NCBI GenBank assembly: GCA_964016885.1 | Contig: OZ024742.1 | Coordinates: 346,332,001 to 346,396,000 of the forward strand | Length of the DNA stretch: 64,000 nt | From: Eledone cirrhosa | Taxonomy: Eukaryota | Direction of reading: 5' to 3' | In this document: positions 40,446 through 43,478 of the stretch, in pieces | Numbering within the stretch: the first letter of the stretch is position 1 | How the letters are laid out: the number at the start of each line of letters is the position of its first letter | Notes under the pieces: generated by a model | What the model was told of the DNA's origin: nothing | What the model saw: only the letters and a program-made list of their open reading frames with translations | Databases searched by the model: none | Program-made: the position numbers and the translations under genes

Positions 40446-40666
40446 TTTATCTCATTTTCTTTTCATACCACTTTTTTCAGTACCAGTAATACACTGGTGT
40501 AATTGCTGGCCTTGTACCAAAAGTAGAAACAATTATTTTTACTATCGTTTCAGGCCATTATCCTAATATCCCCTCCCCCCTCACCATACTTTCTTTCTTA
40601 TTATTATTCTTGTTATTTTTCATGTAACTATAGATACTAGCGCCTTCTATCATCTACACCGAATGC

Positions 40667-40775
40667 GTATTTTGAGAATTTAGTCGGGTGTCAATTGTAA
40701 TTAAAATCGAATGCTGCGGCATACTGCGGGTAGCGGTTTTTAGACACACCGGACTAATGAAACATTTGTTAATAC
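40667..40775 (+). ncRNA. Hammerhead motif with a compensatory U3-A8 core and long stem II
   Basis: GTATT-TTGAGAA-tTTAGTCgGGTGT...ACACCgGACTAAt-GAAA-CATTTG-TT-AATAC. Confidence 0.65.
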
Positions 40776-41169
40776 TTGGAATAAACCCTACTGTATAGCT
40801 GGTCCTTGTTATTCTTCACTCCTTTATATATATATATATATATATATATATATATATATATATATATATATATATATATATATATATATATATATATATA
40901 TATATATATATATATATAAGCGCTTTGTGCGTGTAAGGATATATTTACTTTATTATTATTCTCCTCTTGGTCGAGAAAAAAATTTGGTCGTTCTGACTGC
41001 TGCTAGTTATAGTGGTAGTAAATTGACCTCCCTGCCTCTGCTTCTATCTTTACACGCGGCTCTTGAAAGAATTGCTCCCACATCATTTATTCTCATCTCG
41101 GGAACAATTTTGAATAGCGCCAGTTCGTAATTTGAACTCGGGAATTTTATATTCTCGGAGTGAAAAGAT

Positions 41170-41253
41170 CCTTCTGACGAGAGTTTTTCTTTGCAACGGA
41201 TGCCGTATGGACTGTCCGTTTATTTTTGAAACTCGAAACCGATTCGGTAAAGG
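41170..41253 (+). ncRNA. Type I hammerhead ribozyme motif with extended stem II
   Basis: CCTT-CTGACGA-GAGTTT..AACGGA..TCCGTT..AAACTC-GAAA-CCG att CGG-TA-AAGG; predicted cut after A41249 (GUA). Confidence 0.88.
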
Positions 41254-41398
41254 TAACCAAAGTGAGTAAAGTTAATTTTTTTTTATTTATTTTGAAACTT
41301 TTTCTTATTTAATAAACCTTGATTATATATACATATATATGTATATATATATATATATGTAATATATAAGATCAAAAGATGGTTAAAAGAGTTCCATG

Positions 41399-41469
41399 TA
41401 TTTTATTATGCACATTTCAAAAACAAATATCATCGTGCAATAATATTTGTGTTTTCATCAGATAAAATA
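41399..41469 (-). ncRNA. Type I hammerhead motif (left arm of the palindrome)
   Basis: Reverse complement of 41562-41632; stem III reads ATGTGCAT. Confidence 0.8.
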
Positions 41470-41561
41470 GGAAGACATGATATGAAGGTTAAAAAACACT
41501 TGTGAATAGTGCAAAACTGCACTATTCACAAGTGTTTTTTAACCTTCATATCATGTCTTCC

Positions 41562-41632
41562 TATTTTATCTGATGAAAACACAAATATTATTGCACGATG
41601 ATATTTGTTTTTGAAATGCGCATAATAAAATA
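41562..41632 (+). ncRNA. Type I hammerhead motif (right arm of the palindrome)
   Basis: TATTTTAT-CTGATGA-aaacacaaatattattg ca cgatgatatttgttttt-GAAA-TGCGCA-TA-ATAAAATA; 8-bp stem I. Confidence 0.85.
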
Positions 41633-41876
41633 CATGGAACTCTTTTAACCATCTTTTGATTTTATATATTATGTATACTCCAGTCCTACAAACTGTAGAA
41701 TGCTTCTTATCCGATATCTGCATTGCTTTATTGTACTACAATAAAACTCACCTCCTACATATATATATGTATATATATATATATAACAAAGGAATTGTGG
41801 TAAGGAACCAGATGGACCATAACGCACCAGAGTACTCAATACTTAGGGTAGTAGAGTGGGAAATATGAAAAAGTAT

Positions 41877-41905
41877 GACCCCGACGGCAGAGCTCATGCC
41901 GTTTC
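41877..41905 (-). ncRNA. 3' half of a hammerhead (5' half apparently lost at a microsatellite)
   Basis: Minus strand: GAAA-CGGCA tgagctc TGCCG-TC-GGGGTC. Confidence 0.45.
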
Positions 41906-42229
41906 GACGGCTATCTCTGGACTATTTTTTCTCTATATATATATATATATGTATGTGTGTGTGTGTATATATATATATATATGTGTGTGTGTGTGTATAT
42001 ATATATATATATATGTGTGTGTGTGTGTGTATATATATATATATATATATATATATATATATATATATATATATATCCAGGGAGTGTAACGTGGAGTTAC
42101 TGTAGGTTCACCCGGGTGAGCACTCGATGTTTAGGTTCTCTTCTGTGTCGAGGTGTAGAGCTAGACAGAGTGTATTATAGTAAAATAAAACAAAGACGAG
42201 TAGTTACTCCTTCATTACGTTTATTGGTT

Positions 42230-42314
42230 GGTGACGCGCGTTTCGCCACTGATCAGCTCAAGGTTCGATCTGTATCGATCTAGCCCGACTCTGTAATCCA
42301 CGGCTCGTTAGACC
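42230..42314 (-). ncRNA. Degenerate hammerhead (core CTAACGA) with long stem II
   Basis: Minus strand: GGT-CTAACGA-GCCGT...GTGGC-GAAA-CGCGCG-TC-ACC; the module tail (42077-42118) matches 24578-24619. Confidence 0.6.
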
Positions 42315-43162
42315 GTTTATAATGGTAATGAAAATACATATATATATATGTGTGTGTGTGTGTTTGTGTGTGTGTGTGTGTGTGTGTGTGTGTGTGTGTG
42401 TGTGTGTGTGTGTGTGTGTGTGTTTGTGTGTATATGTGTGTGGAGAGAGAAAGGGAGGGGGTATTCTTTATAAATAGTTATTTCTCCAAACTTACTCATA
42501 TATTTAATCCTGTATGTCATTTGTACATGCCTAACATTTATATAGCTATAATCCTAGAATATCATAAATAAATTCAACGTTAGAATAGAACTAATTAGAT
42601 AATTATTAATTATATCATGTAAGTACATATTTCAAATTTATTCACTATTATATAATATTGAAATTGCGAGAATATACTATTGGATTTTATATAATCTTTC
42701 AGTTCTTTGTTGTTTGGTTTCCTGTGTGAAGGTGTGTGTGTGTGTGTGTGTGTGTGTGTGTGTGTGTGTGTGTGTGTGTGTGTGTAGGTGTGTGTAGATC
42801 TGTGTAGATGTGTGTTTGTGCGCATGTATGTGTGTCTGTATGTGTATGTATGTGTGTGTAGGTGTGTAGGCGTGTGTATGTGTGTTTATTTGTGTTTATA
42901 TGTGTGTAGGTGTGTGTATGTATCAGTTTGTATGTATCTGTATATGTCTGTACATGACTGTATGTATGTGTGTGTATATATGCGTATGTATGTATATATA
43001 TATATATATATGTGTGTGTGTGTGTGTGTGTGTGTAATCTGAGTTTTTCGAATATTAATAATAATATTCGATTTGTTTGCAATTATGCAAACAAGCCTCA
43101 TTTTTAAAGCCATGTCAGTAGAATGAATCCCTCATTCTTGCTCTTGTGTTGGCATGTAAACA

Positions 43163-43212
43163 GAACTGCAGACACTAAAATGTCTGGGTATTACCCTTCA
43201 TCAGTACAGTTC
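43163..43212 (-). ncRNA. Degenerate hammerhead (GAAA box damaged) inside an imperfect hairpin of about 100 nt
   Basis: Minus strand: GAACTGTA-CTGATGA-aGGGT aat ACCC-ag-ACAT ttta GTGT-C-TGCAGTTC; pairing extends to about 43140/43239. Confidence 0.6.
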
Positions 43213-43478
43213 ACTGTTCACCTGCCAAACTGTCAGAGCTAGTGAAAATATATGCTATTTTCTAAAATATACAGTGACTGATCGGCCTGATTTGCATATA
43301 AGCAGACTGGCTGATCAGTCAGATCTGCATATTAGCAGATCCACTGATCAGCCAGATTTGCATATCAGCAGAGTTGCCAGTCAGTTTCCTGTATACGAGC
43401 TTTACCATAGGTGAAATATTGGTGCTGGTACCAAATAAAGCACTCTATGCACAGGCGTTTTTCTATTATATATATATA

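Follow-up and report, generated by a model that had tools for sequence, protein, structure and literature searches.

The window, a stretch of 64,000 nucleotides from Eledone cirrhosa, contains a cluster of seven hammerhead ribozyme motifs (m1 to m7) between positions 40600 and 43400, which is best read as real but ordinary debris of an already described kind, and not as a working RNA-cutting cassette. The motifs belong to six units of 134-429 nt, each of a different family. These units are probably the 5'-truncated pLTR ends of different (TA)n-targeting families of Penelope-like elements (PLEs), or of their non-autonomous derivatives, with the ribozymes carried along as passengers.

Hammerhead motifs and integrity of their cores

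Motifs were searched with a descriptor of type I hammerheads in which either core, standard or U3-A8, was accepted and helix II arms could reach 100 nt. This descriptor was partly tuned, the U3-A8 core and the long helix II having been added after a first version recovered three of the seven motifs and missed, among others, m1 and m6. The ends of the motifs coincided exactly with 40667, 41170, 41399, 41562 and 42230. Overall, four of the seven motifs (m1, m2, m3 and m4) exhibited an intact type I core, that is, CUGANGA or its U3-A8 variant, GAAA, an NUH site and three helices. The helix II arm of m1, 80 nt long, contains a U-U closing mismatch, and its helix III is short and near-palindromic.

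The remaining three lack an intact type I core. Two are decayed, m6 by the G5A change together with a 3-bp helix I, and m7 by its damaged GAAA box; the mean pair probabilities predicted for the three helices of m7 were 0.86, 0.96 and 0.91. The third, m5, is a half motif without the 5' box or helix I: both the CUGANGA box and the helix I partner are missing at the locus, the whole 5' half being absent, and m5 is no ribozyme in its present form. The coordinates that the earlier note gave for the seven motifs are right; one core change (m6), the loss of the GAAA box (m7) and the loss of all but the 3' half (m5) leave four intact.

The interval 40600-43400 yielded four strict matches, whereas 300 block-wise dinucleotide shuffles gave 0.007 on average and never reached four; relaxed matches numbered five, against 0.11 in shuffles. 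In the whole window, eight strict matches were found against 0.2 in 30 shuffles, four of them outside the cluster (24307, 24943, 28482 and 47960). Among the 13 relaxed matches found window-wide, those at 15039, 25737, 43243 and 50024 were dropped, as shuffles averaged 2.6.

No Rfam family reached its gathering score anywhere in the 64-kb window. The best Hammerhead_1 match, at 42227-42262 (m6), scored 19.7 bits (E 0.4) against a gathering score of 34; the Rfam Hammerhead model has 45 positions, and the motifs described here have long helix II arms. Matches resembling miRNAs were dismissed, as they reflect microsatellites or hairpins and lie far under their gathering scores. A pattern scan of viral and metagenome contigs with the unit 4 motif gave no match, and the scan with the unit 3 motif returned one contig, the same in both collections (L001/L002), which was rejected because its helix I was unpaired.

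Anatomy of the units

When all motif-bearing units were compared by blastn, only those of m3 and m4 matched one another. They are the head-to-head arms of one inverted duplication (41354-41513 and 41518-41677; 156 of 160 nt identical), and the cluster therefore consists of six units and not seven, in line with the six families proposed earlier. Each unit runs into (AT)n or (GT)n at its 3' end. Such runs also border units 2, 3, 5 and 6 on the 5' side, where unit 4 has a short T-rich run followed by (AT)n; unit 1 has no such boundary there. The separation of the modules by these runs, as first described, was recovered at all junctions but one, the left edge of unit 1. All features are listed in Table 1.

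Table 1. Positions of the motifs, units, tracts and adjacent element in the window.
Feature	Position	Strand	Description
m1	40667-40775	+	Type I, U3-A8 core variant, helix I 5 bp, GUU site
m2	41170-41253	+	Intact type I, helix II 7 bp, near-palindromic helix III, GUA site
m3	41469-41399	-	Intact core
m4	41562-41632	+	Intact core, palindromic helix III, AUA site
m5	41877	-	3' half only: GAAA 41905-41902, near-palindromic helix III, GUC 41885-41883
m6	42314-42230	-	One core change (G5A), helix I 3 bp, palindromic helix III
m7	43212-43163	-	Three helices form, GAAA box reads CAGA
Unit 1	40542-40824	+	Left edge uncertain; holds m1 and a 50-nt 3' stretch ending at (AT)47
(AT)47 tract	40825-40918		
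Unit 2	40919-41323	+	Interspersed repeat family seen in four runs; carries m2
Impure (AT)n tract	41324-41368		
Inverted arm with m3	41354-41513	-	Copy of 41518-41677; head-to-head partner of unit 3
Unit 3	41514-41755	+	Direct copy with m4, plus a 78-nt extension on the direct arm only, reaching (AT)n
Short (AT)n tract	41756-41790		
Unit 4	41791-41924	-	Deepest of the three families compared with reads; carries m5
Mixed (AT)n/(GT)n tract	41934-42076		
Unit 5	42077-42337	-	Carries m6
(AT)n/(GT)n tracts around a 289-nt AT-rich piece (42443-42731)	42338-43036		Piece without hammerhead match
Unit 6	43037-43465	-	Carries m7
Helitron neighbour	43466-48287 (element about 43479-48212)	-	Between (AT)6 and (AT)n; Pfam Helitron_like_N E 1.8e-54, PIF1 E 1.1e-65

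The 3' ends of all six units point towards the tract at 41756-41790. This common orientation was rejected as a signal, a single switch of this kind occurring in 5 of the 64 possible orientation patterns. Units 2, 3 and 6 have distant relatives among the window motifs outside the cluster, at 47900-48130 for unit 2 and at 24880-25143 for unit 3, and the 3' stretch of unit 6 is colinear with the intact module at 28482. These relatives remain colinear from the ribozyme through to the microsatellite. For the unit 5 family, a 3'-end fragment (40-55 nt) abuts (AT)n at 24577-24618.

Moreover, unit 6 contains three self-complementary repeats of 33 nt at 43277-43385, upstream of m7. A repeat of about 60 nt at 40479-40541, which is probably a SINE or LINE end, has seven further matches in the window (12822, 13303, 14032, 16770, 26492, 48858 and 49465).

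Copies of units 2, 3 and 4 in sequencing reads

Reads from four of 23 runs, X1 and X21 (organism A), X5 (organism B) and X6 (organism C), were compared over 40919-41936, which covers units 2 to 4; the copy number of units 1, 5 and 6 was judged from relatives within the window (none for unit 1). Summed contig peak depths in X1 were about 1e5, 1.8e6 and 3.6e6 for units 2, 3 and 4, respectively, and raw-read peak depths in X21 were about 640, 2,700 and 13,800; as summed depth is no copy number, only the rank of the units was used. The families of units 2 to 4 were also present in X5 and X6. The three units are dispersed and multicopy, and are separate high-copy families, independent of each other.

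Among the pieces listed (24 of 22,263), each was at most 165 nt long and none joined two units; no listed read record spanned a unit junction, and the arrangement rests on the assembly. Letters of unit 2 that are specific to the window had a depth of about 20-35 in X1, which suits a single locus. Among the loose ends listed (24 of 728), those at 41677, 41863 and 41872 were (AT)n (1,714 and 1,558 reads in X21), so that units 3 and 4 have further copies whose ends meet (AT)n at more than one position. Some copies of unit 4 run past 41924, as indicated by loose ends in X1 and X5, with 30 letters visible.

Six of the 15 joints listed (of 32) changed strand, with a variable side at 41830-41886 and a nearly fixed side at 41911-41922. 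In these unit 4 joints, an inverted truncated copy meets the beginning of a direct copy. None of the 15 skipped a whole unit; the contigs were short and repeats were skipped. Joints skipping 92-238 nt within 41397-41638 were rejected as empty sites and were taken as mis-mapping between the inverted arms. Both arms bearing m3 and m4 carry a letter (41435/41596) that is missing from more than 99% of the family depth in X1, which points to a single event. Among the 40 differences listed (of 162), none affected the core bases of m2, m3 or m4, and two fell in the m5 motif (41897 and 41915) without creating a CUGANGA box.

Association with (AT)n tracts

All 11 motifs examined had (AT)5+ on their 3' side, 41-189 nt downstream, against a background of 12.4% of unmasked positions within 200 nt. 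The same was true of the four intact motifs outside the cluster (4/4 with a 3' tract no more than 200 nt away; p 2e-4), for which the 200-nt threshold was picked after the distances had been seen and the (AT)n following the 47960 motif is reached only across a duplicated Helitron end. The proposal of separate insertions tied to (AT)n is supported by this association, by the widely differing depths of the three units and by the lack of any listed record bridging two of them; copies of two families that abut (AT)n elsewhere support it further. Recurrence of the whole 3-kb block as one fixed unit, or a lack of enrichment of the modules at (AT)n, would have spoken otherwise, and neither was seen: the three units lay at very different depths with no listed bridging record, and the motifs near (AT)5+ numbered 11 of 11. 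The stepwise splitting of one ancestral microsatellite and the self-reinforcing insertion put forward in the earlier note are hypotheses that go beyond this association.

With uniform placement over the window, clustering of the motifs was nominal (p 0.042 for three of seven in 1 kb, and 0.005 for five of nine in 2.6 kb). With placement restricted to positions near a tract, it was no longer significant (p 0.20 and 0.064, uncorrected for choosing the densest spot). Because the insertions themselves multiply the tracts, such a test cannot separate feedback from passive targeting. The term 'hotspot', which the earlier note had applied to the cluster, is overstated, as a similar pile-up occurs at 24.3-25.5 kb.

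Other features of the window

The window is repeat- and AT-rich, with 106 tandem-repeat rows and fragments of non-LTR retroelement ORFs, which we presume to be Dong-R4-like. Satellite arrays occupy positions 1-12548 (273 copies of 46-nt units) and 37493-40160 (65 copies of 41-nt units). In the Helitron adjoining the cluster (43479-48212), the Rep and PIF1 frames are split into three ORFs, and (AT)n is present on both flanks.

The second (AT)n pile-up, at 24200-25530, contains an intact minimal hammerhead without a helix III loop (24307-24342), an intact motif at 24943-25007, the unit 5 3' fragment at 24577-24618 as well as short, unexplained stretches between tracts. The 73 nt that close the unit at 24943 recur as an inverted, tail-to-tail copy across (AT)31 (25071-25143 and 25206-25278) with 73/73 identity, which indicates a very recent event, fold-back copying or an assembly artefact. 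At 28265-28725, an intact hammerhead (28482-28524) lies at the centre of an inverted pair. Past the apparent element end, the arms of this pair also take in about 90 nt of degenerate, microsatellite-like sequence. At 47590-48230, two copies (about 80 nt) of the Helitron 5' end region flank an intact hammerhead module (47960-48039) that is distantly related to unit 2. Finally, a decayed hammerhead-like motif on the minus strand at 59085-59150, which the descriptor did not return, has both boxes, a changed site and weak helices, and is located about 75 nt from a microsatellite.

Proposed origin of the units

PLE ancestry is likely in view of the ribozyme type and the insertion structure. The motifs agree with the PLE hammerheads of metazoans described by Cervera and De la Pena (2014, PMC4209133) in their type I core, the U3-A8 variant, a long helix II and a helix III that is either short or palindromic. 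The head-to-head arm and the one-sided tail agree with the insertion structure and (TA)n bias of PLEs described by Craig et al. (2021, PMC8557442). Inverted truncated pairs were observed for m3/m4, at 28270-28720 and in the opposite-strand joints of the unit 4 family.

For the process itself, we infer target priming and the following order of events. A PLE endonuclease would nick (TA)n, and reverse transcription would be primed at the RNA 3' end and halt after 130-430 nt. With the hammerhead 40-155 nt from the 3' end, even short copies would include it. A second priming event could then add an inverted truncated copy, as may have happened for m3/m4. Target sequence would be left on both sides, so that later families could insert in the same tract under weak selection. 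The ribozymes, presumably without function, would subsequently decay as passengers. For unit 4, the simplest reading is a hammerhead with a long helix II that was halved by 5' truncation.

None of the 120 frames of the window matched a Pfam family of reverse transcriptase or GIY-YIG, an absence expected of truncated copies. A weak zf-RVT match was found at 32.3 kb, away from the cluster, and sub-threshold Pfam matches were treated as chance. Neither a target-site duplication nor an empty site was seen at the locus; duplications are not discernible in (AT)n.

We consider it unlikely that the (AT)n tracts are self-seeding pads on which many PLE families stack faster than expected from tract density, and that the family of unit 4, the most successful here, is a short PLE-derived element whose master has lost the CUGANGA half, has a fixed start just upstream of the remaining half and spreads with no functional ribozyme, or with one that is completed in trans.

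The (AT)n could also have come with the elements, carried or seeded by them as tails that slippage later expanded, instead of being prior targets; the cluster would then reflect general repeat accumulation. The measured (AT)n association is indeed 3'-sided, no (AT)n precedes unit 1 on its 5' side, and where unit 4 copies have 5' loose ends, the sequence is AT-rich without being (AT)n. However, units 2, 5 and 6 have (AT)n immediately 5' as well, copies of a single family meet (AT)n at different points (41677 and 41755; 41863, 41872 and about 41791), the Helitron occupies the same tract, and (TA)n is named as a preferred target in the available text of PMC8557442. We regard this explanation as quite improbable.

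A further explanation, which we rate as very improbable, takes each unit for a solo monomer of a non-LTR retrozyme whose spread relies on small circular RNAs excised by tandem hammerheads. The unit sizes (130-430 nt), the low GC and the missing ORF are compatible with such elements, which resemble the units as short non-coding sequences with a type I hammerhead, a high copy number and a proposed PLE origin (accessible parts of PMC7229834 and bioRxiv 10.64898/2026.07.22.740005). The latter source also describes solo copies. This explanation overlaps with that of truncated PLE ends. In contrast to retrozymes, no unit forms a head-to-tail array of like units within the window, and the motifs are minimal, of the long-helix-II PLE type that PMC7229834 sets apart from canonical retrozyme hammerheads. 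Moreover, inverted truncated pairs typify PLEs.

Predicted folding and cutting of RNA

In secondary-structure estimates, which leave out tertiary contacts, the predicted probability of the three-helix fold in isolation was 0.16 for m2, 0.014 for m1 and 1e-4 for m3 and m4; with 60-nt flanks, it was below 1e-3 for m1-m4 and m6. By this measure, m2 would be the best candidate for folding as a monomer. For m3 and m4 co-transcribed with the partner arm, leaving the 160-bp hairpin was predicted to cost more than 90 kcal/mol relative to the active fold. Predicted helix III duplexes within a family reached -14.3 (m2), -10.5 (m4) and -13.3 (m6) kcal/mol, against 0.1 to -0.6 kcal/mol between plus-strand neighbours. 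The one notable cross pair, m3 with m6 (-7.0 kcal/mol), involves the damaged m6. For most pairs, a helix III palindrome would thus find its stronger partner within the family and not in a same-strand neighbour.

The suggestion of the earlier note that read-through RNA from either strand could be cut here fits poorly with these estimates: m3, the sole intact minus-strand motif, would be locked with its partner in the hairpin, and helix III mostly favours its own family. In the available text of PMC4209133, a single minimal metazoan PLE hammerhead shows no cleavage and dimers show low cleavage. Cutting of read-through RNA at this locus is accordingly unlikely on the predicted folds. A bidirectional cassette that terminates read-through transcripts would draw on the three intact plus-strand cores within 1 kb and on m2, the motif predicted to reach all three helices alone in isolation. 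Nevertheless, we hold it to be extremely improbable, as m3 and m4 would be sequestered if co-transcribed, the flanked motifs are hardly predicted to fold into three helices, three of the four motifs on the minus strand are damaged, the arrangement of orientations and families seems haphazard, and no gene was detected in the vicinity.

We find it scarcely credible that a single fixed composite repeat or an error of assembly accounts for the block: the best run contains only 0.52 of the sampled words and no listed read record crosses a junction, but the depth varies about 20- to 35-fold from unit to unit, the m3/m4 arms differ at 4 of 160 positions, and the window-specific letters of unit 2 in X1 have the depth of a single locus.

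Comparison with known systems and significance

Read as truncated PLE ends, the units resemble the minimal hammerheads of PMC4209133, in its available text, also in their short helix I, in the many families per genome, in the mostly single, truncated motifs and in the opposite-strand pairs 100-700 bp apart. They differ in their helix II arms, of up to 36-80 nt, in the absence of the G10.1-C11.1 pair from m1, m3 and m4, and in lacking a linked ORF; a multi-family pile-up in (AT)n is no topic of that text. With the insertion units of EN+ PLEs of the Neptune, Naiad and Hydra types (PMC8557442, in the part available), they share 5' truncation, an adjacent inverted truncated copy, a tail at one end, the (TA)n bias and the lack of discernible target-site duplications, whereas the one-sided tails measure 70-78 nt here and 30-40 bp there. 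As Naiads are without canonical hammerheads in the same part of PMC8557442, most of the units are not Naiads. Insertion into (TA)n, a proposed safe haven under weak selection, is also seen in MuTAnT, which, unlike the units, comprises plant DNA transposons without ribozymes (PMC4486113, as far as its accessible text goes). A literature search on titles and the beginnings of abstracts, with most subscription papers outside it, returned no multi-family hammerhead pile-up in one microsatellite.

The cluster adds uncatalogued families to a described class, relatives of which may already be present in the hammerhead alignment of PMC4209133 or in the family supplements of PMC8557442. It illustrates the stacking of PLE hammerhead remnants in microsatellites and, as it stands, matters little. 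It would carry greater weight if, in genome-wide counts, PLE insertion and (AT)n growth proved to be linked by positive feedback. Moreover, if the deepest family, that of unit 4, truly lacks half its ribozyme, it would offer a natural test of the role of the hammerhead, which would matter because that role in PLE transposition is called unclear in the available text of PMC8557442.
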